Part shown: in pieces, positions 6,991 to 33,315 of the stretch
Numbering within the stretch: the first letter of the stretch is position 1
Layout of the letters: each line of letters opens with the position of its first letter
Source of the DNA: an uncultured Candidatus Saccharibacteria bacterium
GTDB lineage: Bacteria; Patescibacteriota; Minisyncoccia; Phycocordibacterales; UBA12445
Reading direction: 5' to 3'
Length of the DNA stretch: 64,000 nucleotides
Assembly (NCBI GenBank): GCA_964531375.1
Contig: CAZHDO010000001.1
Coordinates: forward strand, 2,282-66,281
The notes under the pieces: model-generated
What the model saw: the letters and a program-made list of their open reading frames with translations, nothing else
Told to the model about the DNA's origin: nothing
Database searches by the model: none
Position numbers and translations under genes: made by a program

Positions 6991-8040
6991 ATGAAATTGT
7001 TAATAATAACCCAAAAAGTAGATAAAAACGATGACATATTAGGGTTTTTTCATAATTGGCTTTTGGAATTTTCAAAGAGGTGTGAAAAATTAACTGTAAT
7101 TTGTCTGCAAAAAGGCGAATACGATTTACCGGAAAATGTTAAGGTCTTTTCTCTTGGTAAAGAAGAAGGCGAATTAAGAATTAAGTACGTCTTAAATTTT
7201 TGGAAATATATTTGGCAGGAACGCAAAAATTACGATTCAGTTTTTGTACACATGAATCCTGAATACGTTGTCTTGGGTGGGTTATTTTGGAGGTTAATTG
7301 GTAAGAAAATTTCATTATGGTATACCCACAAAAGCGTTGATTTGAAATTAAAAATAGCAGAAAAATTTTCCAATATTATTTTTACTGTTTCTAAAGAAAG
7401 TTTTCGAATGAAGACAAATAAATTAAAGGTTGTTGGACATGGTATTCCTGTTGAAAAATTTAAAAACCAAGGTAATTTAGTTTACAAAAAAGATGCTGTT
7501 TTAAAAATTATAAGTGTTGGAAGAATTACGCCGATTAAAAATCTAGACACGTTGATAAACGCCTGTGAAATTTTAAAGAAAAATGGTTTAAATTTTGCAG
7601 TTTCTTTGATCGGGCCAGTGGTGGACGAAAAAGACAGAAAGTATTTTGAATATTTAAAACAACTAATCTCAGAGAAAGATTTAGATAAAGAAATAAAATT
7701 TTTAGGAAGTATCCCAAATAATAAGCTTGCTGAATTTTATTGGCAAAACGATTTTAGTATAAATTTATGCCCAACTGGCGGGGTTGATAAAGCTATTCTT
7801 GAATCAATGGCTTCAGGACTTATTACTCTAGCTTCAAATATTGCTTTTGAGGAATATTTTGGAGAATATAAAGAAGATTTAATGTTTAAGGAAAAAGACG
7901 AAAAAGATCTTGCGGCTAAGATAATGAAATTAATTTCCACAGACGATTTAGTGAGAATTAAGAATTTTCTACTGTCTTCTGTTAAAGAAAAAACTGATTT
8001 AGATAAATTACTATTGAGAATAATTAATGAAATTAAATGA
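6991..8040 (+). CDS. Glycosyltransferase family 1 (GT4-type, GT-B fold)
   Basis: The C-terminal half has the GT4 pattern (ISVGRITPIKN...LIGPV...FLGSIPNNKLAEFY...PTGGVDKAILESMASGLITLAS). It is the first gene of the plus-strand glycan operon. Confidence 0.75.
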   Translation: MKLLIITQKVDKNDDILGFFHNWLLEFSKRCEKLTVICLQKGEYDLPENVKVFSLGKEEGELRIKYVLNFWKYIWQERKNYDSVFVHMNPEYVVLGGLFWRLIGKKISLWYTHKSVDLKLKIAEKFSNIIFTVSKESFRMKTNKLKVVGHGIPVEKFKNQGNLVYKKDAVLKIISVGRITPIKNLDTLINACEILKKNGLNFAVSLIGPVVDEKDRKYFEYLKQLISEKDLDKEIKFLGSIPNNKLAEFYWQNDFSINLCPTGGVDKAILESMASGLITLASNIAFEEYFGEYKEDLMFKEKDEKDLAAKIMKLISTDDLVRIKNFLLSSVKEKTDLDKLLLRIINEIK

Positions 8041-9092
8041 GAATTTGTTATTTTGGTATTTATAATCCAGATTATAGTCGAAATAAAATTATTATGTCTG
8101 GTTTAAGGAGTAATGGGGTCGATGTTTTAGAATGCAATACAAGAAAAAAGGGAGTTTTAAAATATTTCGATCTTGTTTTAAAACATTGGAAAATTAGAAA
8201 AAATTACGACGTGATGATTGTTGGTTATCCTGGGTTTCAGTCTGTGATTTTAGCTAGATTTTTAACAACAAAACCGTTAATTTTCGATGCTTTTTTGTCT
8301 ATGTTTGACTCTATGGTGTTGGATAGGAAAAAGGTTGCGTTAAATAGCTTTCGTGCGAAATATTTTTGGTGGTTGGATAAGATATCTATGAGTGTGGCTG
8401 ATCTGGTTTTAATAGACACAAATGAACATAAAAAATATTTATCAAAAGAGTTCGGTTTTAGTGATAAAAAAATAGAAAGGGTCTTTATTGGTGCTGATAC
8501 TGATATTTTTACTCCAAAAGAACCCAGAAAAAGTGATGGTTTTTTTAGAGTTCTATTTTTTGGTACTTATATTCCGTTGCAAGGAATAGAATATATCATT
8601 AAGGCAGCAAAAAAATTAGAGACTCGAAAAGATATAAAATTTGAAATAATCGGTAAGGGACAAGAAAAAGATAAAATACTAAAATTAACCAGCGAAATGG
8701 ATATTTTAAATATTAATTTTGTTGATAGTTTACCACAAAGAGAACTTCAAGATAGGGTTGCTTTTGCAGATGTTTGTCTTGGAATATTCGGAAATACTGA
8801 AAAAACAAAAAGAGTTATACCAAATAAGGTTTATGAGTGTGTCGCTATGAAAAAGGCCGTTATAACAGCTGATACTTTGGCAGAGAGGGAGCTTTTTGAT
8901 GAAGGTGAATTATTTTTTGTAAAAGTTGCAGATGCTGATTCTATTGTAGAAGCAATAATTAAGCTTAAGGAAAATAGTTCACTTTTGAAAAGTATTGCAG
9001 TGAGTGGGTATAATAAATTTACAAAAGAAGCTACTCCTAATAGAATAGGAATATATTTGCTCGAGATTATAAAACAAAAATATGGAAAATAA
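8037..9092 (+). CDS. Glycosyltransferase family 1 (GT4-type)
   Basis: It overlaps the upstream gene by 4 nt. The pattern is GT-B (RVLFFGTYIPLQGIEYII...IIGKGQE...IPNKVYECVAMKKAVITAD). Confidence 0.7.
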   Translation: MRICYFGIYNPDYSRNKIIMSGLRSNGVDVLECNTRKKGVLKYFDLVLKHWKIRKNYDVMIVGYPGFQSVILARFLTTKPLIFDAFLSMFDSMVLDRKKVALNSFRAKYFWWLDKISMSVADLVLIDTNEHKKYLSKEFGFSDKKIERVFIGADTDIFTPKEPRKSDGFFRVLFFGTYIPLQGIEYIIKAAKKLETRKDIKFEIIGKGQEKDKILKLTSEMDILNINFVDSLPQRELQDRVAFADVCLGIFGNTEKTKRVIPNKVYECVAMKKAVITADTLAERELFDEGELFFVKVADADSIVEAIIKLKENSSLLKSIAVSGYNKFTKEATPNRIGIYLLEIIKQKYGK

Positions 9093-10119
9093 TAAAATAA
9101 AAATCCTAGTTACAGGTTCTGCTGGTTTTATGGGTAGCCATCTTGTCGATGGCTTAGAGAAACTTGGACACGAAGTTTATGGAGTTGATGACCTTTCTGG
9201 CGGTTTTATGAGGAATGTTTCTAATAAGAAAAATTTTACAAAATTAGACCTTCGAGACAGGAAAAAGACCGCTAATTATATTGATAAATTAAAACCAGAG
9301 ATGATATTTCATCTTGCGGCCGATGCAACGGAGGGTAGAAGCCAGTTTACACCCTTTAGTGCCTTAGATAGAAACATCGGCGCATATATGAATCTTTTGG
9401 TTCCAGCAATAAAGAACGGTCTTAAAAAGATGGTTTTGACTAGTTCGATGAGTGTATACGGTGCACAACAAGTTCCTTTTGATGAAACCATGATCACACA
9501 ACCAGAAGACGTGTATGGATCTGCCAAGGCTTCAATGGAGATTTGTACAAGGGTTTTATCTAATGTTTATGGATATAGATATTTAATAATAAGGCCTCAT
9601 AATGTTTTTGGGCCAAGGCAAAACCTTTCTGATCCATATAGAAATGTTATTGGTATATTCTTGAATAGACTATTACACAATAAAAGTTTTTATATATATG
9701 GAGATGGTAAACAAAAAAGAGCTTTTTCTTATATTAATGACACGATACCACCAATGATTAGAGCTGCTTTTAATAAAAAATGCGAAGGTAAGACAATGAA
9801 TGTTGGAGGAGAAGAGGCAATTACCTTAAACCAACTTGCTAAAATAATTACGGAAGAATTTTTTGGGACAAAAGAAATTCCAAAGGAATTTATTCCGACA
9901 CATCTCCCGGGCAGACCACAAGAGGTTAAATATGCATACTCTAATCATGACCTAGCTTTGAAATTAATGGGTTTTAAACCAGAAACATCACTAAGGGATG
10001 GGTTGCGAGAGATGATAAAATGGGCCAAAGAAATAGGTCCGCAGGAGTTTGTTTATTTAAAAGAGCTTGATTTGGAAAATGATTTAGTTCCAAAGACATG
10101 GAAAGATAAACTTCTTTAA
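9082..10119 (+). CDS. NAD-dependent epimerase/dehydratase (extended SDR; nucleotide-sugar dehydratase or decarboxylase-like)
   Basis: ILVTGSAGFMGSHLVDGL is a Rossmann GxxGxxG motif. YGSAKASME is the catalytic YxxxK. The 345-aa length is typical of this family. Confidence 0.8.
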   Translation: MENNKIKILVTGSAGFMGSHLVDGLEKLGHEVYGVDDLSGGFMRNVSNKKNFTKLDLRDRKKTANYIDKLKPEMIFHLAADATEGRSQFTPFSALDRNIGAYMNLLVPAIKNGLKKMVLTSSMSVYGAQQVPFDETMITQPEDVYGSAKASMEICTRVLSNVYGYRYLIIRPHNVFGPRQNLSDPYRNVIGIFLNRLLHNKSFYIYGDGKQKRAFSYINDTIPPMIRAAFNKKCEGKTMNVGGEEAITLNQLAKIITEEFFGTKEIPKEFIPTHLPGRPQEVKYAYSNHDLALKLMGFKPETSLRDGLREMIKWAKEIGPQEFVYLKELDLENDLVPKTWKDKLL

Positions 10120-10129
10120 AATAATAATT

Positions 10130-10777
10130 ATGAGTGATTTTAAGGAACACTACGATAATAAAAAGGAGGTTTATGGAATAAGCAAGACTAGAAAGAAAAA
10201 AATCTTTCAGCTTCTTGGTGACGTAAAATATAAAAAGATATTGGACTTTGGGTGTGGCGGGGGTCATCTCGGAAAGGTTTTTATGGGAGACGGCAACTAT
10301 GTTTGTGGCGTTGATATATCCAGAAAATCAGTTGATGTTGCAAAAAAAGTAATAAACGAGGCTGTTTGTATTGATGCTCAACAAGAAAAGTTGCCTTACA
10401 AAGATGAGTTTTTTGATATAATAATAATGGGAGAGATAATAGAGCATCTACTTGAACCAGAAAGGGTCATGCTTGAGATTAAAAGAGTGTTGAATAAAGA
10501 TGGTTTTGTTATTATAACTACCCCCAATTTTTTAGTTTTTTCTAATAGGATTAAGATGTTGTTGGGTAAATTTGAATACACCGAGACCGGTTTTTTGGAC
10601 AGGGGACACGTTCATTTTTTCCAATTCGATTCATTTAGGAAAATGATTGATGGTTCTGGTCTTAAGGTTGATATGTATAATAACGTTTATCATGGAAAAA
10701 TACCTGAATTTATGGGTAGGTTGTGGCCGAATTTATTCGCTTTTCAAATTGTAGCTAAGGTGTCTAAGAAAAAATAA
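10130..10777 (+). CDS. Class I SAM-dependent methyltransferase
   Basis: ILDFGCGGGHLG is SAM-binding motif I. DIIIMGEIIEHLLEP is motif II/post-II. Confidence 0.75.
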   Translation: MSDFKEHYDNKKEVYGISKTRKKKIFQLLGDVKYKKILDFGCGGGHLGKVFMGDGNYVCGVDISRKSVDVAKKVINEAVCIDAQQEKLPYKDEFFDIIIMGEIIEHLLEPERVMLEIKRVLNKDGFVIITTPNFLVFSNRIKMLLGKFEYTETGFLDRGHVHFFQFDSFRKMIDGSGLKVDMYNNVYHGKIPEFMGRLWPNLFAFQIVAKVSKKK

Positions 10778-11757
10778 TGTTAAAAATAGCTGTTATAAAT
10801 CCTCCAAATGGAGATGGGTTGGCGCGAACTGTTTTTGACGGTCTTATTCAGTTAAAGAAAAAAGGAATTGTTAATTCTTTTAAGTATCCAAATAAATTTT
10901 CCTATCCCATAGAAGGTTTGGCAGAAAATTATACAGAAAATGTAAGTGAATTTATTAACTTTGCAAATGAATCAGATTTTATTTTTTTGATTTGGGGTAA
11001 GGGGTGTACAGATTTTTCTTTGGCAAATAAGATTAATTTGTGGGGTAAAACCATTTTTTTGGATGGTTCGGAGATTGGTAAAAACGGAAGGTATGATTTT
11101 GAAATTCAAAAAAAGATAGTAAAGGGAGAATATACCGGAAATGGTAAGATTGACATAGACATGCTTAAAAAATGTCCTCTTTATTTAAAAAGAGAAAAGC
11201 CTTATAAAGATGGGGTTTTGCCACTTCCTTTTGGTATTGAGGACGCTTATGTTAAAAATTTTTCCAGAGAAATAAAGAAAGATATAGATTTTTTCTGTGT
11301 CTTTGGTCAAGATGAGTACCCTTTAATGAGGAGGTATTCCAAAGAAATTCTTATCGAGTTTTGTGCCAAAAATAATTTTTCCTGTTTTACAGAGAAAGTG
11401 GAAAGGGACGAGTTTTATAAAAAATTAGCTAGGTCAAAAGTAGGGATCTCTGTTGGTGGTGGGGGTTATGATACATTAAGATTCTGGGAAATATTGGGTA
11501 ATAATTGCCTTCTTCTAACAGAAAAAATTGACATATACGAGCCTGATTTGAATAGATTAAAATATGAAAGAATCTGGCAATTTAATGATCTATTTGATTT
11601 TGAGCACCAATTAAACAAAATAGGGAAATATCTAAGAGGCGGATATTCTCAAGCAAGTTTGGAATTGGAGTATGAAAAAATAATATCTGAGCATTCCTCA
11701 GAATCGAGGGTTTTGGAAATAATAAACAAAGCTAAAGGGGTAGGATTGGTAAAATAG
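10777..11757 (+). CDS. Hypothetical protein of the glycan operon (possibly GT-B-like glycosyltransferase)
   Basis: 326 aa, translationally coupled to its neighbours. It contains a weak GT-B C-terminal-like segment (GISVGGGGYDTLRFWEILGNNCLLLTE). No firm motif was found. Confidence 0.3.
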   Translation: MLKIAVINPPNGDGLARTVFDGLIQLKKKGIVNSFKYPNKFSYPIEGLAENYTENVSEFINFANESDFIFLIWGKGCTDFSLANKINLWGKTIFLDGSEIGKNGRYDFEIQKKIVKGEYTGNGKIDIDMLKKCPLYLKREKPYKDGVLPLPFGIEDAYVKNFSREIKKDIDFFCVFGQDEYPLMRRYSKEILIEFCAKNNFSCFTEKVERDEFYKKLARSKVGISVGGGGYDTLRFWEILGNNCLLLTEKIDIYEPDLNRLKYERIWQFNDLFDFEHQLNKIGKYLRGGYSQASLELEYEKIISEHSSESRVLEIINKAKGVGLVK

Positions 11758-11760
11758 AAG

Positions 11761-12654
11761 ATGATAACAAAATGTAACATTTGCGATAATGTGTCATTAT
11801 TTCTTCTAAAAAAGGATGGTTTTTCTGTTTTTAAATGTCAAAAATGCGACCTCTCTTTTGTTTTTCCTCAACCGACTCCTGATATGCTTAGGGGCAGTGT
11901 TTATTCCGGGAAATATCAAGCTAACAAAATCGCAGAGCTTAAAAAAGTTGCATTAGATAGTAAAAAAATAAGGATTATTGATTATATTAAGGCAAATATT
12001 CAAAAAGGAAAAAAAATTCTCGATATTGGTTGTTCAAACGGCGAATTTATTTTTAAATTAAAAGAAATTGGATATGAATGTTTTGGTGTAGAGTTAAATA
12101 AAGGGACTTATGAGATTGCTAAAAATAACGGACTAAATGTGCAGAATTGTATTCTTGAAGAAGCGGGTTTTAAAGATTCTTTTTTTGATGTAATTTTTCT
12201 GGGTGACATAATAGAGCATGTTGCAGATCCTGATAATTTTATAAGAGAATGTCGCAGGATATTAAAAAGTGAGGGGATTATTATTATTTCAACTCCGAAT
12301 ATGGATTGTTTTTGGTCAAAAAGTACCTTGATACTATATAATATTTTTGGAATTCCTTGGTCATCTGTAACGCCTCCTTATCATTTGTATCAGTTTTCTG
12401 TGGATAATTTGGATTTATTGATGAAAAATTTTAATTTTATTGTAAAAGACGGTTGGTTCTCAGGGCCTCCAGTGTTAAAATATGAGTTAGGACAGACCCA
12501 TGTTTGGGGTAATTTTAAGAGAGATAAAAGTCTTGGAAATATAGTAAAATTATTATTAACCGCTATTCTTTATCCCGCATTATACTCTATTAATATATTA
12601 ACAGCTCCGCTAAATCAAAAGGATTTTGGAATGGTTCGTGTTTATAAAAAATGA
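11761..12654 (+). CDS. Class I SAM-dependent methyltransferase with an N-terminal Zn-ribbon
   Basis: CNICDN...CQKCDL is a zinc ribbon, then ILDIGCSNGEFI (motif I) and DVIFLGDIIEHVADP. Confidence 0.7.
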   Translation: MITKCNICDNVSLFLLKKDGFSVFKCQKCDLSFVFPQPTPDMLRGSVYSGKYQANKIAELKKVALDSKKIRIIDYIKANIQKGKKILDIGCSNGEFIFKLKEIGYECFGVELNKGTYEIAKNNGLNVQNCILEEAGFKDSFFDVIFLGDIIEHVADPDNFIRECRRILKSEGIIIISTPNMDCFWSKSTLILYNIFGIPWSSVTPPYHLYQFSVDNLDLLMKNFNFIVKDGWFSGPPVLKYELGQTHVWGNFKRDKSLGNIVKLLLTAILYPALYSINILTAPLNQKDFGMVRVYKK

Positions 12655-13265
12655 AAAACTGGGAAATATTTTTTAATGAAAAAATAAGAAAAATCTTTTT
12701 GGAAAAAAAAGAAATTATTGATATTGGTGGTGGTTTAAGGATAGATAAAAAAAAGAATAACCGATACGATAAGAGTAGGGAGTGGATTATTCCACTTTTG
12801 GATAGTGTGGATTACAAAATAATGGACCCTGTTTCTGATTATAATCCCGATATTGTCGGAGATATTCACAATATGCCATTCAAAGATAATTCTAAAGATG
12901 CTTTAATTTGCATAGCGGTTCTGGAGCATGTTGAGAATCCGATTAAAGCTTCGGCAGAGATTTTTAGGATTTTAAAAAAGGATGGTTATGCTTTTGTCTA
13001 TACTCCTTTTTTGTATTACTATCATGCAGAGAGGGGGTATTATAAAGATTATTGGAGGTTTACTGAAGATGTGTTAAGGATGATGTTTAAGGACTTTTCT
13101 GAAATAGAAATTTGCCCTGTTCGTGGCGCTTTGGGTACTTGGATAAGATTGAGTCCGTTAGGAAGATATCCTTTCGTGGAAAATATTTTTTATTACTTCG
13201 ATAAGGTTTTTGGAAAACTCAATTCAAAACAAGTTAGTGGATACAATATTTTTTTAAAGAAATGA
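12651..13265 (+). CDS. Class I SAM-dependent methyltransferase (Methyltransf_11-like)
   Basis: IIDIGGGLR followed by DALICIAVLEHVENP, with a 4-nt overlap with each neighbour. Confidence 0.6.
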   Translation: MKNWEIFFNEKIRKIFLEKKEIIDIGGGLRIDKKKNNRYDKSREWIIPLLDSVDYKIMDPVSDYNPDIVGDIHNMPFKDNSKDALICIAVLEHVENPIKASAEIFRILKKDGYAFVYTPFLYYYHAERGYYKDYWRFTEDVLRMMFKDFSEIEICPVRGALGTWIRLSPLGRYPFVENIFYYFDKVFGKLNSKQVSGYNIFLKK

Positions 13266-14377
13266 AATTATTTTATATTGCAAATGCTAGGATTCCGACA
13301 GAAAAAGCTCATGGTATTCAGATAATGAAAACATGCGAGGCTCTGTCGAAACAAGGAATAGAGGTTGAACTTATTGTTCCCAATAGGGATAATAATATAA
13401 ACGAGGACCCTTTTTATTATTATAAAATAGAGAGAAATTTTAATATAAAAAAAATATATTCTCCCGATTTAGTAAGATTCGGAAAGGCGGGGGTTCTTTT
13501 CCAATACTTGTTTTTTTCTTGGGTTTCTTTATTTTATTGCTTGAAGGGGAAAGTAGATTTTTTTTATTCTCGAGATGAATTGCCAATTTGGTTTTTGAGT
13601 TTATTTGGTAAAAAAGTTTTTTGGGAAAGTCATAATGGTAAGTGGAATTTCCTTGTTTCAAGTATAGTAAAAAGAGCCTCTGGAACAGTAACAATATCTC
13701 AGGGTATAAAAAATTTCTTTATTAACAAGGGGATTAAAGAGGATAAAATTTTTGTATCTCCAGATGCAGTAGATCTCAAAGACCATGTAGGAACAACAAA
13801 AGACGAAGCTAGAAAAAAAGTTGGCCTGCCTTCCGATAAAAAAATTATTCTATATACAGGGCATTTATATGGTTGGAAAGGAGTAAATACCCTCGCTGAA
13901 TCGGCAAAGTCTTTTGACGAAATGAATTTATTTGTCTTTGTTGGTGGCACAGAGGGTGACGTAAATTCATTTAAGCAAAAGTATTCAGACACAAAGAATA
14001 TTCTAGTTCTTGGACAAAAACCACATTCTGATATACCACTCTATCTGAGTTCCGCCGATGTTTTAGTTCTTCCAAATAGTGGCAAGGAGGATATTTCACG
14101 TCTTTATACCTCACCAATGAAGCTTTTTGAGTATATGGCTAGTGGTAGGCCCATAATTGCTTCAAATTTGCCATCTATAAGGGAGATATTGAATGAAGAT
14201 AATGCTGTATTTTTCGAATCAGATAACCCTGGCGACTTAAGCCGGTCTATTAAAAAAGTTTTGGGCGACAAGGAACTTGGTGATAGAATTTCAAAACAGT
14301 CGCTCTTAGATGTTAAGAAATATACTTGGGAAAATAGAGCAAAGAACATAATAAATTTTATAAATGCTAAAAGATAA
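13262..14377 (+). CDS. Glycosyltransferase family 1 (GT4-type)
   Basis: ILYTGHLYGWKGV...FVFVGG...EDISRLYTSPMKLFEYMASGRPIIASN is the classic GT4 EX7E-type C-terminal domain. Confidence 0.8.
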   Translation: MKLFYIANARIPTEKAHGIQIMKTCEALSKQGIEVELIVPNRDNNINEDPFYYYKIERNFNIKKIYSPDLVRFGKAGVLFQYLFFSWVSLFYCLKGKVDFFYSRDELPIWFLSLFGKKVFWESHNGKWNFLVSSIVKRASGTVTISQGIKNFFINKGIKEDKIFVSPDAVDLKDHVGTTKDEARKKVGLPSDKKIILYTGHLYGWKGVNTLAESAKSFDEMNLFVFVGGTEGDVNSFKQKYSDTKNILVLGQKPHSDIPLYLSSADVLVLPNSGKEDISRLYTSPMKLFEYMASGRPIIASNLPSIREILNEDNAVFFESDNPGDLSRSIKKVLGDKELGDRISKQSLLDVKKYTWENRAKNIINFINAKR

Positions 14378-25173: not shown

Positions 25174-25180
25174 TTTTTCT

Positions 25181-26005: not shown

Positions 26006-26006
26006 G

Positions 26007-27314
26007 TTATTTTGTTTTAATTGTTTTGTAATTCAAAATTGATGATAGTTTGCCCATTTTTTTCCATCTGTAATCGAGCCTATAATTATTTGCGTCTGTT
26101 ATTTCAAAACTAAGATTTTTTTTAAGGTCAACATATTCTACAAAAGGCTTTTGCAGGGAGACTTCAATATAGTATTGATTTATATTTAAGAGGTTTTTGG
26201 GTACTTCTATCGTTGTTTTATAAACTCCTGGCTGGTAATCTTTAAGACAAGGAGAACCGTCTGTTTCAGAAGAATGCAGTATTAATTCCCCGGAAACTCC
26301 ATAGAATAGTACACAAATTAATGCTTTAGGTAATGGTTCTTTAATTAAATATTCAATTTCTATCGAAAAATTTTCATCAACAGGAATAAAGTTACTTGGG
26401 TCATTGTTCTTGTTTAGAAAAGAAATTTTTGTTATTTGATGTTTTTTACTGGGATCTTCTTCATAAGAGCTAACTGATTCGCTTTTATTGCTGGATAGAT
26501 TGATATAGTCCTGGATTGCTTCAGATGTTTCTTTAAAGCTTTTAATTTGACCTTTTTCTAAAACAATACATTTTTGGCAGAGGTTTTGAATTGCACTTAT
26601 GTTGTGACTAACAAAGAGAACCGTTCGTCCTCCTTCTTTTGATATCTCTCCCATTTTTCCGAGACATTTTTTTTGAAATTCAGCATCACCAACTGCAAGT
26701 ACCTCGTCTATTATAAGAATGTCTGGTTCCATGTGTGCTGCCACAGAGAAGGCGAGGCGGACATACATCCCCGACGAGTAGTATTTAACAGGTGTGTCTA
26801 GGAATTTTTCAATCCCAGCGAACTCTACGATTGTGTCAAATTTTTCACCAATTTCTTTTTGTGACATACCGAGAATAGCTCCATTTAAGAAAATATTCTC
26901 TCTTCCTGAGAGTTCTGGATGAAATCCTGTGCCAACCTCAAGAAGTGAACCGACTTTTCCATGAAGTTTTATTTCACCATGCGTTGGCGGTGTTATTTGA
27001 GATAAAATTTTTAGTAAGGTTGATTTTCCGGCACCATTTCTTCCAATTATTCCAATTACTTCACCTTTTTTAACCTCAAAACTCACGTCTTTAAGTGCCC
27101 AAAATTCTTCCTTGGTTTCCATGCCAGCCACCTGTTTGGCTTTCTTTTTTAGAAAAGCAAAAGGGGAGGTTATTGCATTTGTAAGAATATCTCGTAGTGC
27201 AATATAATTACCTCTTTGGTGTGTAATGTTATATCTCTTGCTTATGTTTTTTACTTCAATAATTGGATGGTCCATTTTTTTATTAATATTATTCTCTTTT
27301 GATTCTTTGTGCAC
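26007..27314 (-). CDS. wzt: Polysaccharide ABC exporter ATP-binding protein (Wzt/TagH-type) with a C-terminal extension of about 170 aa resembling the carbohydrate-binding domain of Wzt
   Basis: Walker A is GIIGRNGAGKSTLLKIL, the signature is YSSGMYVRLAF, and Walker B is ILIIDEVLAVGD. The C-terminal extension is predicted beta-rich. Confidence 0.85.
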   Translation of the reverse strand: MHKESKENNINKKMDHPIIEVKNISKRYNITHQRGNYIALRDILTNAITSPFAFLKKKAKQVAGMETKEEFWALKDVSFEVKKGEVIGIIGRNGAGKSTLLKILSQITPPTHGEIKLHGKVGSLLEVGTGFHPELSGRENIFLNGAILGMSQKEIGEKFDTIVEFAGIEKFLDTPVKYYSSGMYVRLAFSVAAHMEPDILIIDEVLAVGDAEFQKKCLGKMGEISKEGGRTVLFVSHNISAIQNLCQKCIVLEKGQIKSFKETSEAIQDYINLSSNKSESVSSYEEDPSKKHQITKISFLNKNNDPSNFIPVDENFSIEIEYLIKEPLPKALICVLFYGVSGELILHSSETDGSPCLKDYQPGVYKTTIEVPKNLLNINQYYIEVSLQKPFVEYVDLKKNLSFEITDANNYRLDYRWKKMGKLSSILNYKTIKTK

Positions 27315-27356
27315 TTGATATTTTTATCTATTTTTTGCTATTCTATATGCATAAGT

Positions 27357-27435
27357 GCCTTCGGGCTTGCCCTGCGAAAGCAGGGAGAAAAGTGAAAGGT
27401 CGTCAAAGTATATCTTTGACGGCTTTTCTTATTCT
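27357..27435 (+). ncRNA. Candidate small structured RNA or regulatory element (antisense to the wzm-NYN-wzt transcript), with promoter-like TTGATA-18-TATTCT at 27315-27344
   Basis: Going 5' to 3' on the plus strand: a cUUCGg hairpin (gcc-ttcg-ggc), a 6-7-bp stem capped by a GNRA tetraloop (ccctgc-gaaa-gcaggg), then a terminator-like hairpin (gtcgtcaaag-tatat-ctttgacggc) followed by ttttctt. The canonical UNCG/GNRA loops exist only in the plus orientation. Confidence 0.25.
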
Positions 27436-27615
27436 TTCGAAAATTTCCATATCTATAAAACTTATTTTATTAGCAAAACGCTTAATATCAATGACTCGCA
27501 TTTGCGAAATAATAGCGGAGGCTTCTTTGCCTTCTATTGCATGGTATAGCTTTTCGCTATCCATATCATGAATTTCTATCTTTTTTTTATTCCATTTATC
27601 GAATTCTTTTTTCAT
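27403..27615 (-). CDS. Small hypothetical protein (70 aa) between the NYN gene and wzt
   Basis: An ORF with charged, coiled composition, co-directional with and 80 nt downstream of the NYN gene. No recognisable motif. Confidence 0.3.
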   Translation of the reverse strand: MKKEFDKWNKKKIEIHDMDSEKLYHAIEGKEASAIISQMRVIDIKRFANKISFIDMEIFERIRKAVKDIL

Positions 27616-27696
27616 TTTTGTTTGACTTTTATTTTTTGGTTTGATATTATTATTAGGTATCCAAAATAGAAAAGAGTGCCCTGTAAGGTTCCGTCC

Positions 27697-28203
27697 TTAT
27701 GGGGTCTTTTCTTTTTTATACTCTAGAATTTCTTTTGAATTGTTTAAAAATCTGAGGTAGCTTTTTAGTATGTCAACTTTAAACAATGCTGAAAATTGTG
27801 ATTTATTCGGTATCGTTATAAAACCTAATTTATTTTTTTTGAGTAGATATTCAACTAAACAATAAAAGTCCCCATCTCCTGTTACAATGACCGCTTTGTC
27901 AAAATTATTAAATTGAATCATTGTATGCAGTACTAATTCCGCATCGCAGTTGCCTTTTGTGGTTCCATCTTGGTGTCCTAACGTTGGTTTAAAGATACAT
28001 TTATAACCTGTGCGATTAAGAAAATCGTACATTTTTTTATTACTTTCGACATAGCCAATAAATAGATAGGCCTCTTTTATTCCATATTTTTCTTTCAAAT
28101 AAATACGGAAACGCGCAAAATCTAAAATCCAACCCTGACTGCGTATGTTTAGGTTAAGGTTTTGACTATCTATAAAAGCGTAATTTTTTTCTTCTTTTCT
28201 CAT
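27697..28203 (-). CDS. NYN-domain (LabA-like) protein, paralog of 6316-6918
   Basis: YAFIDSQNLN...AYLFIGY...GNCDAELVLH...AVIVTGDGDFYCLVEYL shares the NYN/DUF88 pattern with the first paralog (YAFIDVQN...DVDL...SGDGDFEYLV). Confidence 0.6.
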   Translation of the reverse strand: MRKEEKNYAFIDSQNLNLNIRSQGWILDFARFRIYLKEKYGIKEAYLFIGYVESNKKMYDFLNRTGYKCIFKPTLGHQDGTTKGNCDAELVLHTMIQFNNFDKAVIVTGDGDFYCLVEYLLKKNKLGFITIPNKSQFSALFKVDILKSYLRFLNNSKEILEYKKEKTP

Positions 28204-28221
28204 TTTATTACCTTTCTCTTG

Positions 28222-29040
28222 TTATATTACATCTGCGAAATACCTCTCTGTTTTTTTGAAAGAATATGTTCCAAAGGCGAGTAGCGCGAGACAAGCGATA
28301 AGGGAAATAAAGATAAGATTCCAGTTAATTACAGCTGTATTCAATATAGCAGCTCTCGCGTTTTGAATTACCCCTGTCATTGGGTTTATGGCTAAAAGCC
28401 AGGAATATTCTCCCGCTATACTTGCAGGATAGATTACGGGAGTAAGATACATTAACATTTGAACAAAGAACGGTAGAATATATCTAAGGTCTCTGTATTT
28501 CACATTTATTGAAGCTAGAAAAAGTCCTAAGCCGACTGAAGCCATAAAGGTTATCAATAGAAGAAGTGGTATTATTAATACTCCAATTAAATTAGGCATA
28601 AAACCGTAATATATCATTAGAACTCCAAGAACAAGAAAGGCAATAGAAAAATCTACTATTTTTGTTAGAACAGAAGAGATAGGGAGGATCAGACGAGGAA
28701 AGTAAACTTTTGTTATAATAGCTTGGTTTGATATTAGACAATTGCTTGTGTCGCCGAGCGCGCTAGAAAAGAAATTCCAAAATAAAAGTCCTGTGTATAT
28801 AAAAATTGGGTAGGGAACATTATCAGATGGCATTTTCGCTAGGTTTCCGAAGAATACAGTAAAGACAAACATCGTCATGAGCGGTTGAAATATGGCCCAT
28901 CCGGCTCCTACTATTGTTTGCTTGTATCTAACCTTAAGGTCTCTCCATGTAAAAAAGTACATTAATTCTTTGTAGGCCCAAAGTTCGCGGATATCATTCC
29001 AGCTAAACATTTTTTTGGGCTTTATAATTGTTGTTGCCAT
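28222..29040 (-). CDS. wzm: Polysaccharide ABC exporter permease (ABC-2 type, Wzm/TagG-like)
   Basis: 272 aa with 6 predicted TM helices. It starts with the ABC-2 hallmark ...ELWAYKELMYFFTWRDLKVRYKQTIVGAGWAIFQPL. Confidence 0.8.
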   Translation of the reverse strand: MATTIIKPKKMFSWNDIRELWAYKELMYFFTWRDLKVRYKQTIVGAGWAIFQPLMTMFVFTVFFGNLAKMPSDNVPYPIFIYTGLLFWNFFSSALGDTSNCLISNQAIITKVYFPRLILPISSVLTKIVDFSIAFLVLGVLMIYYGFMPNLIGVLIIPLLLLITFMASVGLGLFLASINVKYRDLRYILPFFVQMLMYLTPVIYPASIAGEYSWLLAINPMTGVIQNARAAILNTAVINWNLIFISLIACLALLAFGTYSFKKTERYFADVI

Positions 29041-29065
29041 TTTAATTATTTATTTATGTTTTATT

Positions 29066-29314
29066 CTACCACTTATTTATTTTCTTAACGACTTTTTTCT
29101 TTAATTTTAGGTAAGAGTCGACTGCTTCTTTTTCGACTGTAGGGGATACGAGTCTAAGAATTTCTTTCCCCAGTATTCTATATTGTCCACCGACTTTATT
29201 TGCTCTTATAAGTCCTTTTTTTAAAAGGCGCTTTATAGTGCTCGTACTTATCTTTAATAAGTCTTGTGTTTCTGCTGTTGTATATACGATATTTTTCTTT
29301 ATTTCTCTATCCAT
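29066..29314 (-). CDS. Small helix-turn-helix DNA-binding protein (excisionase/MerR-like HTH_17 family)
   Basis: YTTAETQDLLKISTSTIKRLLKKGLIRANKVGGQYRI is an HTH_17 motif. It is divergent from the RhuM/Fic gene. Confidence 0.55.
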   Translation of the reverse strand: MDREIKKNIVYTTAETQDLLKISTSTIKRLLKKGLIRANKVGGQYRILGKEILRLVSPTVEKEAVDSYLKLKKKVVKKINKW

Positions 29315-29452: not shown

Positions 29453-30490
29453 ATGTTTTTAAATAAAATGAAAAAAGAAAATAAGAATATTGGGGAAAAT
29501 TTAAATAAGAGTGAGATTGTTATTTATCAAGATAAAGATAAACGTATCTTTGTAGACGCTGTTCTTGATGAAGATACTGTTTGGTTAAATTTAGATCAAA
29601 TGTCTGTCTTGTTTGATAGGGATAAGTCTGTTATTTCTCGACATATTAAAAATATTTTTGTAGAAAAGGAATTGAGCTATAGTTCAGTTGTTGCAAATTT
29701 TGCAACAACTGCCGCTGATGGAAAAACGTATAAGGTGGATTACTATAATTTAGATATTATTATCTCTGTGGGTTATAGGGTTAAATCAAAAAATGGCGTA
29801 AGTTTTAGAATTTGGGCGACAAAAACTCTCAAGGATCACATTATTAAAGGGTATACATTGAATGCTGATAGGTTAGAAGAAATAAAAGCAAAACAGTTTT
29901 GTGAATTTGAACAAGCGGTTGGTTTGATTAAAAAGACAATAGAAACTAGACAGCTTTCCGGAGGTGAGGAAAGCGGCCTTTTAAAGGTGATTACAGAATA
30001 CACTAACTCCTGGTTGTTATTGCAAAAATACGATGAAGATGGTTTATTTTTGCCAAAGAAGGCAAAAAAATCTTCGTTTTCACTCGAATATGATTTTGCG
30101 TTAAAGGCAATTTCTAATTTAAAGCAAGATTTGATTAAAAAAGGCGAGGCGAGCGCTCTTTTTGGTACAGAAAGATCAAGTCTTCAGGGGATAATAGGAA
30201 ATATTTATCAGACTTTCGGAGGCTCGGAATTATATTTGAGCATAGAAGAGAAGGCGGCACATCTTCTTTATTTTATAATTAAGGACCATCCTTTTTCAGA
30301 TGGAAATAAACGCATTGGTTCTTTTTTGTTTATCGTTTTTCTGGCCCAGAATAAACATTTACTTAAGAGTAACGGCGATAAGAAGATAAATGATAACGCT
30401 TTAGTGGCTATTGCTTTACTTGTGGCGGAAAGTGATCCATTGCACAAAGACACATTGATTAAACTGATAACTAACTTAATTATTGATTAA
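29453..30490 (+). CDS. RhuM-family N-terminal domain fused to a C-terminal Fic/Doc (death-on-curing type) domain
   Basis: GKTYKVDYYNLDIIISVGYRVKSKNGVSFRIWATKTL is the RhuM signature. HPFSDGNKRIGSF matches the Doc/Fic motif HxFx(D/N)GNKR. Confidence 0.7.
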   Translation: MFLNKMKKENKNIGENLNKSEIVIYQDKDKRIFVDAVLDEDTVWLNLDQMSVLFDRDKSVISRHIKNIFVEKELSYSSVVANFATTAADGKTYKVDYYNLDIIISVGYRVKSKNGVSFRIWATKTLKDHIIKGYTLNADRLEEIKAKQFCEFEQAVGLIKKTIETRQLSGGEESGLLKVITEYTNSWLLLQKYDEDGLFLPKKAKKSSFSLEYDFALKAISNLKQDLIKKGEASALFGTERSSLQGIIGNIYQTFGGSELYLSIEEKAAHLLYFIIKDHPFSDGNKRIGSFLFIVFLAQNKHLLKSNGDKKINDNALVAIALLVAESDPLHKDTLIKLITNLIID

Positions 30491-30493
30491 AAT

Positions 30494-31339
30494 ATGAAAT
30501 ATAAAATTGGAGTGGCTGGGGTTGGTATGGTTGGTGCACAGGTGAAAAAATGGTTTGAATTAAAAAAGTTTGAAGTTTTTGCTTATGACAGTTTTAAAAA
30601 TATTGGTAAATTTGAGGATTTGCAATCGGCTGATATTGTTTTCGTCTGTTTGCCAACGCCACATAGTAAAAGAAGCGATACTGGGGTGGATGTTGAGGTT
30701 TTTAAGAAATTCTTCCGCAATTTTAATGGGCCTAAAATTTTTGTAATAAAATCGACAGTTCCGCCAGGAACCACTGAGTTTCTTCAAGAAGCTTTTCCTG
30801 ATTACTCTTTTCTTCATAGTCCGGAATTTCTCACTGAGTCTACTGCTTGGGAGGATTTTTCTAAGCCAGTTTTTCAATTACTAGGATATACGGAAAAAAG
30901 TAAGAATATCGCCAACGACGTTATAAAGATATTACCAAGAGGAAAGGTAAACGAGGTGGTAAGAAGTAATGAAAGTGAAATATTTAAATTTACTCGAAAC
31001 GCTTTCTTCGCAATGAAGGTAATTTTTGCTAATCAGATATATGATTTGTCTCAAAAATTCGGTGCTGATTATGATGTTCTTAAGAAATTAATGTTGGCGG
31101 ACCCTTGGATTGGTGGACATCATTTAGAGGTTATTCACAAGGGTTATCGAGGTTTTGGTGGAAAATGTTTACCAAAAGATTTAAAGACCTTTATCAAAGT
31201 GTTTGAAAAAAAGAGAGTTACACCCTCGCTGTTTAATGTCGTAGATCAGATTAATGAAACCATGTTAAAAAAACAAAAACTAGGAGAAACTTTAAAAAAA
31301 TATTGGTTAGGTAATTATAATGAGCCAGAAAAAAAATAA
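30494..31339 (+). CDS. Nucleotide-sugar dehydrogenase (UDP-glucose/GDP-mannose dehydrogenase family) lacking the C-terminal UDP-binding domain
   Basis: KIGVAGVGMVG is the Rossmann motif. IKSTVPPGTT, SPEFLTESTA and the catalytic-Cys motif GGKCLPKD all match the family. The ORF ends about 100 aa early and overlaps the galE start by 20 nt. Confidence 0.6.
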   Translation: MKYKIGVAGVGMVGAQVKKWFELKKFEVFAYDSFKNIGKFEDLQSADIVFVCLPTPHSKRSDTGVDVEVFKKFFRNFNGPKIFVIKSTVPPGTTEFLQEAFPDYSFLHSPEFLTESTAWEDFSKPVFQLLGYTEKSKNIANDVIKILPRGKVNEVVRSNESEIFKFTRNAFFAMKVIFANQIYDLSQKFGADYDVLKKLMLADPWIGGHHLEVIHKGYRGFGGKCLPKDLKTFIKVFEKKRVTPSLFNVVDQINETMLKKQKLGETLKKYWLGNYNEPEKK

Positions 31340-32342
31340 AAAAGTTTTAATAACTGGAGCTGGTGGTTATATTGGTTCGATTACAACTTACACTTTTCTT
31401 AAAAAAGGTTATGAGGTGGTTGCTGTTGATAATTTCTCTAGAGGATATCGAGAGCCAGTTTCTTTCTTGCAGAAAAAGTTTGGTGAAAATAAATTAAGAT
31501 TTTATGAGGCTGATTTAAACAATAATATTGATTCTGTTTTTGAAAAAGAAAAAGATATTAGTGTGGTTGTTCATTTTGCTGCCTTTTGTCTGGTTAATGA
31601 ATCAATGGAGGATCCTTTTAGGTATTTTAATAATAATTTTTTTGGTTCAGTGAGGCTTCTTGAGGCTATACAGAAAAATGGTGTAAAAAATATAGTATTT
31701 TCTTCGACCTGTGCAACTTATGGTAATGCTGAGTATTTACCAATTAACGAAAAACATCCACAAAATCCGTCCAATCCTTATGGAGAATCTAAGCTATTGG
31801 TAGAAAAGGCAATTAAGTGGCTGGGTAAACTTCAAGGTTTAAATTATTTTATCTTTAGATACTTTAATGTGTGTGGTGCTTCTGATGATGGACTGATCGG
31901 AGATTCCAAGAAGCCATCTGCGCTTCTTGTGCAGAACGCAGTTAAGGGTGCACTCAATATATCTGAGTTCTCTTTAACTTGCCCGCATGTCGATACTAAA
32001 GATAGTACTCCAATACGAGATTATGTTAATGTGGTTGACCTTGCAGAGGCGCATCTTCTTGCTGTTGAGTATTTATTAAAAAATGAAGGACAAGAAATTG
32101 TGAACCTTGGTACCGGTAAAGGTAATTCTGTTTTGGAAATAATCAAAAAAGTTGAGAAAGTCACTGGACATAAATTTGATATTAAAAGATCTGAGGCCAG
32201 AAAGGGTGAAGATAAAGAACTTGTAGCCGATATTCGTAAGGCGAAAAAAATCTTGAACTGGAAACCAAAAAGAACAATAGAGGATAGTATTTTGTCATTA
32301 GTAAAATGGTATAAAAAACATCCAAATGGCTGGTCAAAATAA
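31320..32342 (+). CDS. galE: UDP-glucose 4-epimerase
   Basis: VLITGAGGYIGS, YGESKLLVE (YxxxK) and a 340-aa length are typical of GalE. Confidence 0.8.
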   Translation: MSQKKNKKVLITGAGGYIGSITTYTFLKKGYEVVAVDNFSRGYREPVSFLQKKFGENKLRFYEADLNNNIDSVFEKEKDISVVVHFAAFCLVNESMEDPFRYFNNNFFGSVRLLEAIQKNGVKNIVFSSTCATYGNAEYLPINEKHPQNPSNPYGESKLLVEKAIKWLGKLQGLNYFIFRYFNVCGASDDGLIGDSKKPSALLVQNAVKGALNISEFSLTCPHVDTKDSTPIRDYVNVVDLAEAHLLAVEYLLKNEGQEIVNLGTGKGNSVLEIIKKVEKVTGHKFDIKRSEARKGEDKELVADIRKAKKILNWKPKRTIEDSILSLVKWYKKHPNGWSK

Positions 32343-33315
32343 AAAAGTTTTAATAACAGGAACGGCTGGGTTTATTGGTTTTAATACAGCGAAGAGACTT
32401 CTTGATGAAGGGGTGTCTGTTGTTGGCGTTGATTGTTTTACTCCGTATTATGATATTAAAATAAAGAAAAAAAGAAACGAGATTCTTTTAAAATATCCTA
32501 ATTATAAATTTTATAAAAAAGATATTTCTGTTTATTCGAATGTCGATAAAATAATAAAAAAAGAAAAACCAGATTCTATTATTCATCTGGCAGCACAAGC
32601 AGGCGTGAGATACTCTCTGGTTAATCCTTGGGCCTATGTTGATGCGAATTACTTAGGGACCTTGAATATTTTTGAAGGTGCTAAAAATAATGGAATTAAG
32701 AAAGTTATTTATGCTTCTTCTAGTTCCGTGTATGGAAGTAATAAAAAAATGCCTTTTTCTGAGAGCGATAGAACAGATAACCCAATTTCGATTTATGCAG
32801 CTTCTAAAAAAGCCAACGAAGTTTTGGCTCATTCTTATTACCATCTTTACGGAATAGAGTCTGCAGGACTTAGATTTTTCACTGTTTACGGAGAATATGG
32901 TCGTCCTGATATGGCGCTTTTTAAATTTGCAAAAAATATTTTACTCGAAAAGGAAATTGAAGTGTACGGTGAGGGTAAAATGGCTCGAGATTTTACATAC
33001 ATAGATGATATTGTTTCTGGAATAATTGGAGCACTTAACAAAGAAAGTCTTGGCTATGAAATTTATAATCTTGGAGGTGGTCAGAGGGTGGCGCTGATGG
33101 AGTATGTGAAATTAATCGAAAAGAATATCGGTAAGACAGCTAAAATAAAAATGTTACCGATGCAGGCAGGGGACGTGAGAGAGACAAGTGCGGATATAAA
33201 TAAGGCAAAAAAAGAAATTGGATATGAACCAAAAACAAGGGTTGAGGTTGGAATTGAAAAATTTGTAAATTGGTTTTTGGATAATCAGAAGTGGCTTTTA
33301 AAGCTTAAGGACTAA
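32326..33315 (+). CDS. NAD-dependent nucleotide-sugar epimerase (UDP-glucuronate/UDP-GlcNAc 4-epimerase-like, WbnF/Cap1J type)
   Basis: VLITGTAGFIGFNTAKRL, YAASKKANE and HLAAQAGVRYS are present. Confidence 0.8.
   Translation: MAGQNKKVLITGTAGFIGFNTAKRLLDEGVSVVGVDCFTPYYDIKIKKKRNEILLKYPNYKFYKKDISVYSNVDKIIKKEKPDSIIHLAAQAGVRYSLVNPWAYVDANYLGTLNIFEGAKNNGIKKVIYASSSSVYGSNKKMPFSESDRTDNPISIYAASKKANEVLAHSYYHLYGIESAGLRFFTVYGEYGRPDMALFKFAKNILLEKEIEVYGEGKMARDFTYIDDIVSGIIGALNKESLGYEIYNLGGGQRVALMEYVKLIEKNIGKTAKIKMLPMQAGDVRETSADINKAKKEIGYEPKTRVEVGIEKFVNWFLDNQKWLLKLKD

Follow-up and report, generated by a model that had tools for sequence, protein, structure and literature searches.

What would a bacterium of the Patescibacteria type (candidate phyla radiation, CPR) do with ten methyltransferases (MTases) encoded in a single glycan locus? 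The locus lies in a 64,000-nucleotide stretch (the window) of contig CAZHDO010000001.1 from an uncultured Candidatus Saccharibacteria bacterium, and a previous sequence-only reading had described positions 6991-33315 as a surface-glycan island of about 26 kb, specifying a methylated glycan that is exported by an ATP-binding cassette (ABC) transporter. By mapping the open reading frames (ORFs) of the glycan region (6991-35760) and scanning the predicted proteins with Pfam and NCBIfam profiles, we reproduced almost every item of that reading and counted, between 6991 and 33315, ten class-I S-adenosylmethionine (SAM) MTases, nine glycosyltransferase (GT) domains, three short-chain dehydrogenases/reductases (SDRs), a short nucleotide-sugar dehydrogenase and a Wzm/Wzt exporter. 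We conclude, with a probability of about 0.65, that the locus encodes an ABC-transporter-dependent glycan assembly system in which export is gated by a terminal cap and which commands a large methylation toolkit. The earlier interpretation is supported in substance, although its core architecture belongs to a kind already described.

Wzm and Wzt, as predicted, are present (Table 1) and form the sole exporter among the scanned window ORFs, with no Wzx found. Wzt carries residues ~270-435 past its nucleotide-binding domain (NBD), an extension that the sequence-only reading had likened to the Wzt_C-type domains that recognise a methylated chain terminus. By sequence alone this C-terminus has no PDB match and just one word-indexed homologue, and since its Wzt_C score falls slightly below the Pfam gathering cutoff, we modelled residues 259-435 with AlphaFold2 (AF2) from 63 homologues (pLDDT 89.3). 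In Foldseek comparisons, the 17 best PDB matches of the model are all carbohydrate-binding domains (CBDs) of Wzt proteins (E 3e-7 to 4e-5, TM 0.55-0.77), among them those of Aquifex aeolicus in the apo form (6O14) and with 3-O-methyl-mannose (8DKY, E 3e-7), of the Kdo-cap-binding O12 protein (5HNO) and of E. coli O9a (2R5O), which bears out the domain assignment at the level of the fold. In the cap-gated ABC pathway of E. coli O8/O9a and A. aeolicus, it is the Wzt CBD that reads methyl caps (PMC9445017).

The gene order around wzt bears on the source of such a cap. We compared 12 wzm-wzt loci from CPR bacteria including the window (ten with Pfam-annotated genes, two mapped by phmmer) and found that the gene directly after wzt encodes an MTase in 10 of them: FkbM in four (the window, L089, L090 and L101), a fusion of a GT13-like domain to a TylF domain in three, DUF268 in two and TylF in one. 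This coupling follows the CBD, as all ten CPR loci with a CBD match in Wzt have an MTase after wzt and neither of the two without such a match does (Fisher p = 1/66); in these two, L102 and L103 (wzt at 10001-11266 in both), no Wzt_C match is on record and the next genes are a GT2 gene and an unannotated 332-aa gene. A wzm-wzt-TylF order also occurs in Bacteroidota (L034, L039, L057, L084). The closest homologues of the window's Wzt (56-65% identity) and of its own fusion protein (up to 60%) come overwhelmingly from Patescibacteria/Paceibacteria metagenome-assembled genomes (Vogel-, Zambryski-, Azam- and Pacebacteria), and best hits of this kind, at 51% identity for the fusion, are the basis of the CPR placement. 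In the window, the FkbM-family MTase announced by the earlier reading sits directly downstream of wzt and is a candidate for the enzyme that adds the terminal methyl cap.

A second candidate, judged from its domain make-up and neighbours, is the 501-aa fusion, which may act as a cap-adding terminator. Its TylF domain matches NovP, MycF and CalS11 in PDB sequence searches (~2e-20) and has four aspartates (D437, D439, D464, D465) that are invariant in 27 homologues and that we take to be metal ligands. The N-terminal domain, connected to TylF by ~50 helical residues in the model (246-299), gave an AF2 model of pLDDT 92.9 with an EDD motif (E103-D104-D105) invariant in homologues, and the nearest structures by Foldseek are POMGnT1 (5GGI, 1.8e-12) and GnT-I (1FO8/1FOA, ~1e-11; TM 0.53-0.59). 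Residues 1-300 have no Pfam (including GNT-I, PF03071) or NCBIfam match, PF03071 being recorded for one distant homologue only (P0078); the domain is therefore called GT13-like on the strength of its modelled fold, and in this sense the proposed GNT-I-like GT fused to a TylF-type O-MTase is confirmed. An MT7zn orthologue directly follows the fusion in five of five loci with a full-length fusion near wzt (L003, L005, L007, L008, L009). The CBD fold, the strict wzt-MTase coupling and the kinship of TylF to deoxysugar O-MTases together match a cap-gated ABC pathway.

As an observation in its own right, the GT13-like GT-A domain (23572-24471 in the window; homologues P0031-P0120, loci L010-L087) is widespread despite having no Pfam or NCBIfam model: 583 confirmed stretches were found in GTDB representatives from Cyanobacteria, Bacteroidota, Proteobacteria, CPR and others, where it is found by itself (~290 aa), in tandem or as a fusion with TylF or with FkbM (P0034, P0053, P0055).

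The count of about ten class-I SAM MTases stands, with all ten placed in SAM-MTase families. Nine of the ORFs exceed their Pfam gathering scores, and the tenth (MT5, 18054-18674) is placed by its relatives: phmmer finds homologues down to 4e-14, MT5 aligns colinearly with MT9 with LNLGxG and SHxxEH motifs in common, and 8 of the 10 members of its family alignment match Methyltransf_11, so that the total of ten is right. Of the two N-terminal Zn-ribbons that had been noted, the CxxC...CxxC of MT2zn is present, whereas that of MT7zn is degenerate. The stand-alone MTases measure 204-306 aa. Recent tandem duplication can be rejected as the source of the excess, as every pair is at most 33% identical and most pairs go undetected by BLASTP. 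Instead, the excess arises because an MTase-rich module B (six MTases) adjoins a module A with four. The GTs and MTases have no transmembrane segment or signal peptide, the sole exception being a C-terminal hydrophobic stretch in MT2zn (residues 261-279); soluble enzymes together with Wzm/Wzt as sole exporter fit an assembly and methylation that are completed in the cytoplasm before export.

One of these MTases may also have an assignable sugar. DUF268 genes lie beside GT11 genes in at least five loci from four phyla, in neighbourhoods from Saccharibacteria, Acidobacteria, a beta-proteobacterium and several Paceibacteria (L016 13768-15388; L047 6530-8293; L065 6755-9003; L088 13479-15094; and twice in L104, 7444-9054 and 11264-12967), and the window has a DUF268 and a GT11 gene in module B (20359-21108 and 15904-16818, both on the minus strand). 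In L104 the two pairs are accompanied by ManC, PMM and two GDP_Man_Dehyd-type SDRs (Gmd-like and Fcl-like). The fucose-modifying MTase of Caenorhabditis elegans is still unidentified, and DUF268 genes are present in the glycosylation gene clusters of this nematode (PMC7614267). Together, adjacency and the nematode precedent make DUF268 a candidate fucose O-MTase family, and MT6 a candidate 6-deoxyhexose/fucose O-MTase.

A ratio of MTases to GTs near 1:1 had been called highly unusual. To place it, we took a census of 66 related loci of at least 15 kb by one phmmer screen that used the window's MTase families, and found 0-4 MTases in each (median 1) against 8 in a 21.5-kb slice of the window locus, whose full 26 kb hold 10; being biased to the window's own families, the screen somewhat undercounts the relatives (e.g. 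it missed a Methyltransf_3 gene in L003). The Pfam-annotated CPR loci hold 1-5 MTases per ~21 kb, L104 having five plus one B12-radical-SAM enzyme, and the window's count is about twice the highest among relatives. While the 10:9 ratio is indeed the highest seen, MTase-rich versions are common in related Patescibacteria, and the locus stands at the far end of a tendency of its lineage and is not unique. A high ratio also has a precedent in the O-glycan cluster of Tannerella forsythia, with three MTases to five GTs (PMC6120980). In L090 (16438-18914) and L104 (15344-17212), radical-SAM enzymes (SPASM-type or B12-binding) replace some of the class-I MTases, which hints at C-methylation or other radical sugar chemistry there.

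Could such an excess be largely idle? The MTases might be redundant, silent or directed at lipids, proteins or small molecules rather than at a glycan, having collected in a hypervariable island shuffled by horizontal transfer, as the selfish or defence-type genes inside or beside it (RelB/YafQ, two NYN genes, a MazF-like fragment, RhuM/Fic), its GC content below that of the flanks, the differing content of every relative examined and the redundancy of T. forsythia, with three MTases for two methyl groups (PMC6120980), could suggest. Yet each of the ten ORFs is intact, they stand close together with stop and start codons that overlap as in co-translated operons, MT7zn, DUF268, FkbM, MT9 (phmmer 2e-85 to its close orthologue in L089), MT1 and MT2zn have position-conserved orthologues in other glycan loci, and the TylF, FkbM and DUF268 types are associated with sugar loci. 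We regard an idle or glycan-unrelated excess as improbable.

The GT repertoire largely agrees with what had been proposed (Table 1). There are nine GT domains, of which four are GT4 domains above threshold; the supposed fifth GT4 is a weak, GT-B-like ORF (GTx) with no NCBIfam match, which is nevertheless kept alongside GT4a, GT4b, MT1 and MT2zn in ten metagenome loci. Two GT2 genes are present, but the second GT domain ascribed to the 556-aa GT2 finds no support from Pfam, NCBIfam, PDB or a comparison with the GT13-like profile, and its C-terminal half matches no family. Two motifs of that half (residues ~285-556; 18685-19500), FDNS and IDHD, recall the nucleotide-binding site and the DxD motif of a GT-A enzyme. 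The GT11 gene with its HxRRGDY signature was correctly called. Nine GT domains of five kinds, taken with ten MTases, suggest that the structure is complex and multiply methylated. The SDR genes number three (9082, 31320, which is GalE, and 32326), not the four that had been listed. The nucleotide-sugar dehydrogenase homologue is there in a short form that has the N-terminal and central domains and lacks the C-terminal UDP-binding domain (TIGR03026 131 bits, cutoff 190); in L091 the GT4a orthologue is directly preceded by a homologue (6118-7029; 7e-53), which indicates a conserved, module A-linked short form and not a local truncation.

Table 1. Genes of the glycan region of the window, with the profile matches (E values or bit scores) and features on which each assignment is based
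Feature	Position	Strand	Evidence
GT4a, GT4, module A	6991-8040	+	Glycos_transf_1 8.6e-20
GT4b, GT4, module A	8037-9092	+	Glycos_transf_1 4.4e-14
SDR1, nucleotide-sugar epimerase/dehydratase, module A	9082-10119	+	Epimerase 4.6e-48; far under every NCBIfam equivalog cutoff
MT1, class-I SAM MTase, module A	10130-10777	+	Methyltransf_11 2.8e-20
GTx, probable GT-B-like transferase, module A	10777-11757	+	Glyco_trans_1_2 20.3 bits, below cutoff 25; weak
MT2zn, Zn-ribbon + class-I SAM MTase, module A	11761-12654	+	Methyltransf_11 3e-18; N-terminal CxxC...CxxC
MT3, class-I SAM MTase, module A	12651-13265	+	Methyltransf_11 1.5e-12
GT4c, GT4, module A	13262-14377	+	Glycos_transf_1 1.7e-23
MT4, class-I SAM MTase, module A	14364-15071	+	Methyltransf_23 6.7e-8 + Methyltransf_12
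RelB antitoxin (15501-15785) and YafQ/ParE-type toxin (15234-15497), convergent junction	15234-15785	-	PF04221 1.2e-8; PF15738 2.2e-8
GT11 (alpha-1,2-fucosyltransferase family), module B	15904-16818	-	Glyco_transf_11 PF01531 1.8e-34, 119.8 bits (cutoff 23.9); HIRRGDY
GT4d, GT4, module B	16820-18052	-	Glycos_transf_1 8.2e-23
MT5, divergent class-I SAM MTase, module B	18054-18674	-	Methyltransf_23 16.5 bits alone; placed via relatives
556-aa GT2 (residues 1-230) + C-terminal half without family, module B	18685-20355	-	Glycos_transf_2 9.3e-42
MT6, DUF268-type SAM MTase, module B	20359-21108	-	DUF268 4.5e-17 + Methyltransf_11
GT2b, GT2, module B	21116-22051	-	Glycos_transf_2 1.6e-27; 311-aa gene call from identical contigs
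MT7zn, class-I SAM MTase, module B	22044-22964	-	Methyltransf_23 2.4e-19; only 3 Cys
501-aa fusion: GT13-like GT-A (1-~245), helical linker, TylF O-MTase (322-490)	22966-24471	-	TylF PF05711 1.4e-37, 129.8 bits (cutoff 23)
MT9, class-I SAM MTase, module B	24481-25173	-	Methyltransf_11 26 bits (cutoff 21.2)
FkbM-family MTase, directly downstream of wzt, module B	25181-26005	-	Methyltransf_21 7.5e-20
Wzt, ABC ATPase + C-terminal CBD (~275-435)	26007-27314	-	ABC_tran 1.2e-23; Wzt_C 2e-6, 28.3 bits (cutoff 30.4)
NYN-domain protein (27697-28203) and 70-aa MazF/PemK-like C-terminal fragment (27403-27615)	27403-28203	-	NYN 2.3e-14; PemK_toxin 0.0099, weak
Wzm, ABC-2 permease	28222-29040	-	ABC2_membrane 1.7e-17; hydrophobic segments
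HTH_17 small DNA-binding protein, head of wzm operon	29066-29314	-	HTH_17 2.4e-11
RhuM/Fic-DOC protein	29453-30490	+	Virulence_RhuM 1.8e-24; Fic 3.5e-12
Short nucleotide-sugar dehydrogenase homologue, 281 aa	30494-31339	+	UDPG_MGDP_dh 9.8e-18; UDPG_MGDP_dh_N 8.6e-15
GalE, UDP-glucose 4-epimerase	31320-32342	+	TIGR01179 327.5 bits (cutoff 262)
SDR3, epimerase/dehydratase	32326-33315	+	GDP_Man_Dehyd/Epimerase 1e-57; under all equivalog cutoffs
Wzy_C (O-antigen-ligase/O-oligosaccharyltransferase family) + C-terminal TPR, 747 aa	33517-35760	+	Wzy_C 1.1e-16 + TPR; ~11 hydrophobic segments

The genes fall into three blocks, A (plus strand, 6991-15071), B (minus strand, 29314-15904) and C (plus strand, 29453-35760). 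Block A comprises nine genes with tight overlaps in the order GT4, GT4, SDR, MTase, weak GT-B-like, Zn-ribbon MTase, MTase, GT4 and MTase. Block B runs from HTH_17 through Wzm, the NYN gene and 70-aa MazF-like fragment, Wzt, the FkbM MTase, a further MTase and the 501-aa TylF fusion to a Methyltransf_23 MTase, GT2, the DUF268 MTase, the 556-aa GT2, the divergent MTase, GT4 and GT11. Block C consists of RhuM/Fic, the 281-aa dehydrogenase, GalE, a further SDR and the membrane protein with Wzy_C and TPR domains, so that the O-antigen-ligase/TPR protein expected downstream is indeed found. The GC content is 0.30-0.33 in the island and 0.35-0.39 in the flanks, which hold housekeeping genes (GroES/GroEL and SecG upstream; SecA, IF-2, ClpB and tRNAs downstream). 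The observation of an island of ~26 kb was thus correct, but it is a composite of two separately conserved modules (A and B) and selfish inserts rather than a single unit.

RelB/YafQ, the NYN gene with its MazF-like fragment, HTH_17 and RhuM/Fic had gone unmentioned before. The RelB/YafQ pair and the RhuM/Fic protein are inserts that lie outside the pathway. The NYN/MazF-like insert (0.9 kb) parts wzm from wzt and is absent from the relatives examined, wzm and wzt being adjacent in L005, L088-L090 and L101-L104. A second NYN (PIN-like nuclease) paralogue, 26% identical, is located at 6316-6918 on the plus strand, immediately upstream of module A. The RhuM/Fic gene, which encodes a fusion protein, is divergent from the HTH_17-wzm operon and stands between this exporter operon and the genes for sugar nucleotides and Wzy_C-TPR.

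Modules A and B meet convergently, on opposite strands, with the toxin-antitoxin pair between them; a simple scan of this junction revealed no intrinsic terminator, and the number of promoter-like sites there is no higher than expected from shuffles. Joining of unrelated contigs into an apparent island during assembly, an idea that stems only from this junction and the inserts and has no positive evidence, is exceedingly improbable: the window's sequence recurs with 100% identity in two other assemblies, over 21.5 kb and 14.7 kb and with the junction included, GroEL and SecA are together on one 311,884-bp contig, and the order secA-Wzy_C-HTH-wzm-wzt is common to L088, L090 and L103. The check for a chimera therefore came out clean.

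This gene order is one face of a wider pattern. In 8 of the 12 CPR loci a Wzy_C-TPR gene is no more than 10 kb away from wzm, with secA adjoining it in four, and an HTH_17 gene (81-85 aa, excisionase/MerR-like) precedes wzm in at least six (L005 7652-7900; L088 8880-9137; L102 8858-9103; L103 8901-9149; also the P0141 locus), its product probably being a dedicated, putative regulator of the exporter operon. A phase-variable or invertible promoter near wzm/HTH_17 was considered and rejected, the only repeats being short, AT-rich and due to chance. Downstream of wzt, gene content is different in every genome compared, and this combination of a fixed site and a variable cassette resembles an O-antigen-type variable locus.

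On this basis, we propose the following route. A lipid-linked glycan would be made on the cytoplasmic face by the soluble GT4, GT2, GT11 and GT13-like transferases and O-methylated there by as many as ten non-paralogous SAM MTases at several different positions, assuming that modules A and B serve the same glycan, the likely target of the DUF268 enzyme being the GT11-added sugar. A methylated cap would be placed at the non-reducing end by the wzt-adjacent FkbM enzyme, by the GT13-like/TylF fusion with MT7zn or by both, and the C-terminal CBD of Wzt would read this cap to license export through Wzm/Wzt. Finally, the Wzy_C-TPR protein, which has the PglL/WsfB architecture, would hand the glycan over to an acceptor at the surface; in a bacterium without lipopolysaccharide (LPS), a protein such as an S-layer protein or pilin is the most likely acceptor, and CPR bacteria are not known to make LPS. 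The exported glycan probably contains a GT11-added 6-deoxyhexose, and the surface sugars are probably very heavily methylated.

Several observations count against this route. The Wzt_C score remains under its cutoff, and the NYN gene and toxin fragment between wzm and wzt could disturb the operon. Scans of 50 window ORFs for functions that the pathway needs returned no priming transferase (Bac_transf or Glycos_transf_4; WbaP/WecA type), whose gene may lie in another part of the genome (in L089, a Bac_transf gene stands at the end of the locus). No window SDR reaches the equivalog scores of gmd (TIGR01472) or Fcl, and no sugar nucleotidyltransferase or ManC/PMM is present in the window, so that the GT11 donor is a presumed one; the prediction of a fucose-containing glycan accordingly has the GT11 gene in its favour but no gmd/fcl in the window to accompany it. 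Characterised terminators typically carry a long coiled-coil ruler (PMC11231755), which the window MTases do not have and which no other protein of the island provides; since there is no ruler, the product is possibly a defined oligosaccharide and not a length-regulated polymer, as the many different GTs may also indicate. Finally, the adjacent regions that were read revealed no ORF resembling an S-layer protein or a prepilin, and module A recurs apart from wzm/wzt.

The block GT4a-GT4b-(SDR)-MT1-GTx-MT2zn-...-GT4c recurs in ten metagenome loci, with GT4a orthologues adjoining GT4b/GTx in L091, L094, L098 and L099, and the three with full flanks (L091, L097, L099) show no wzm/wzt within 10 kb, although flanks of this length cannot exclude a more distant pair. 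Module A may therefore serve another product: two independent pathways would then stand side by side, with module B (15904-29314) exported by Wzm/Wzt and module A, perhaps including the short dehydrogenase, making a separate methylated glycolipid or wall-linked oligosaccharide that leaves by another route, and the ten MTases would be the sum of six and four. The opposite strands of the modules with a toxin-antitoxin pair between them, the PMT_2 and DUF2298 GT-C-type membrane proteins nearby in L099 and the 1-5 MTases of CPR loci with module B alone all suit such a division. It is at odds with the lack of a second exporter (Wzx, GtrA-like or second ABC system) among the scanned window ORFs, with the location of both modules in the same low-GC stretch and with L096, which combines module A genes with a Wzy_C-TPR gene at the locus end. 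We consider two pathways a serious but less probable alternative to one cap-gated pathway that uses both modules.

The acceptor raises another question, as sequence cannot tell an O-oligosaccharyltransferase (O-OTase) from a WaaL-type ligase and the Wzy_C protein matches solved structures in PDB sequence searches through its TPR only, with no solved ligase among them. The glycan might instead be a wall polysaccharide or teichoic-acid-like polymer, exported in the TagGH manner and linked to peptidoglycan or lipid, with Wzy_C-TPR as lipid/wall ligase or polymerase. In its favour, the highest NCBIfam scores of the Wzt NBD, none of which reaches its cutoff, are those for teichoic-acid export ATPases (PRK13545, 214 bits) and for the galactan exporter Wzt/RfbE, no S-layer or pilin gene was seen near the locus, and in L088 and L103 MurB separates the Wzy_C gene from secA. 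But TagH-type exporters do not have the Wzt CBD that is present here, no LCP-family ligase or glycerol/ribitol-phosphate genes were detected in the window, and Wzy_C with a C-terminal TPR is the architecture of the protein O-OTases PglL and WsfB (PMC2943079). A non-protein glycan thus appears unlikely to us, and a protein-linked, cap-gated product is preferred.

How new is such a system? Among the closest counterparts are the S-layer-glycan (slg) clusters known from Geobacillus stearothermophilus NRS 2004/3a and from Paenibacillus alvei (PMC2943079), in which a monoderm-type cell likewise exports a cytoplasm-completed glycan by Wzm/Wzt, a multidomain GT and O-MTase protein (the terminator WsaE) makes a terminal O-methyl cap, as a GT-MTase fusion might here, and a Wzy_C-family O-OTase is present (of the O-OTases WsaB, WsfB and PglL, the latter two have a C-terminal TPR as in the window), in tightly overlapping genes with a GC content below that of the genome. 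However, WsaE joins its MTase to two rhamnosyltransferase domains and not a GT13-like GT-A domain to TylF, the slg clusters have rml genes, a WbaP-type initiator and a nearby S-layer gene, none of which is in the window, and they encode one MTase domain compared with ten.

The wzm-wzt-wbdD-wbdA loci of E. coli O8/O9a (Klebsiella pneumoniae O5/O3) share with the window the order wzm, wzt and MTase, a Wzt C-terminal CBD that reads the cap and termination-gated export. Yet WbdD is a large coiled-coil molecular ruler, a kinase and MTase in O9a, and in these diderms WaaL attaches the product to lipid A-core; membership of a WbdD-type kinase-MTase (kinase domain, coiled coil and membrane-binding C-terminus) was rejected for the window, as no island ORF matches a kinase family and none has a coiled coil. 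In Pseudomonas syringae, the transport-elongation-termination (TET) operon for the CPA polysaccharide has the cassette wzm, wzt with CBD, O-MTase and GT, the GT and MTase being fused in some strains (PMC7820976), and the CBD of A. aeolicus Wzt, the best structural match of the window's, binds 3-O-methyl-mannose/rhamnose caps (PMC9445017); these systems differ in having one MTase, compared with ten in the window, and a simple rhamnan or mannan, compared with nine GT domains of five kinds, and in the families of the fusion partners. The cluster that serves general O-glycosylation of proteins in T. forsythia (PMC6120980), polycistronic and ~27 kb long, uses its five GTs and three MTases to decorate S-layer proteins, among others, with a complex oligosaccharide that contains fucose and is O-methylated, but with a Wzx flippase and in a diderm of the Bacteroidota. 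The earlier reading did not recognise the exact architecture as that of a described system, but wzm-wzt-MTase, the GT/MTase fusion and Wzy_C-TPR are of a described kind. In short, the mechanism is already known, and what is new is its CPR version, in which the terminator candidate is a different one and the methylation toolkit is exceptional.

A bolder reading joins several of these patterns, and we hold it tentatively, thinking it doubtful that all of its parts apply together: a hypervariable, serotype-like cassette of Paceibacteria-type CPR bacteria, at the fixed site secA/Wzy_C-TPR/HTH/wzm/wzt, would direct the heavy, combinatorial O-methylation of a protein-linked surface glycan. If so, the wzt-adjacent FkbM, TylF, DUF268 or fusion proteins would form a new class of ruler-less terminators that co-evolve with the Wzt CBDs, the ten MTases would produce a hydrophobic, near-permethylated glycan coat relevant to the attachment of the episymbiont to its host or to phage evasion, and DUF268 would be the long-sought fucose O-MTase family, shared with nematodes.

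Since the mechanism is not new, the surprise is limited, but the surface glycans of CPR bacteria are unexplored and the comparative patterns are directly testable. Hardly any work exists on glycosylation in CPR/Patescibacteria, which was termed 'unexplored' in a 2024 study of Saccharibacteria pili (PMC11623550), and our full-text literature search found no paper tying Patescibacteria to these genes. The MTase beside every CBD-bearing Wzt extends the methyl-cap export checkpoint to the CPR and points to short, ruler-less terminators, while the conserved anchor (secA, Wzy_C-TPR, HTH, wzm, wzt) with its variable cassette resembles a serotype locus of the O-antigen type, here in a lineage that is monoderm-like. 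Methylated glycans have, to our knowledge, rarely been reported in bacteria; the GT13-like GT-A family, often fused to TylF/FkbM MTases, and the DUF268-GT11 pairing provide candidates for methylated-deoxyhexose enzymes, and ten distinct MTases in one locus would be a useful enzyme set for glycoengineering. CPR cells spend their lives fixed to hosts, so attachment, the range of hosts and sensitivity to phages probably depend on the chemistry of their surface.

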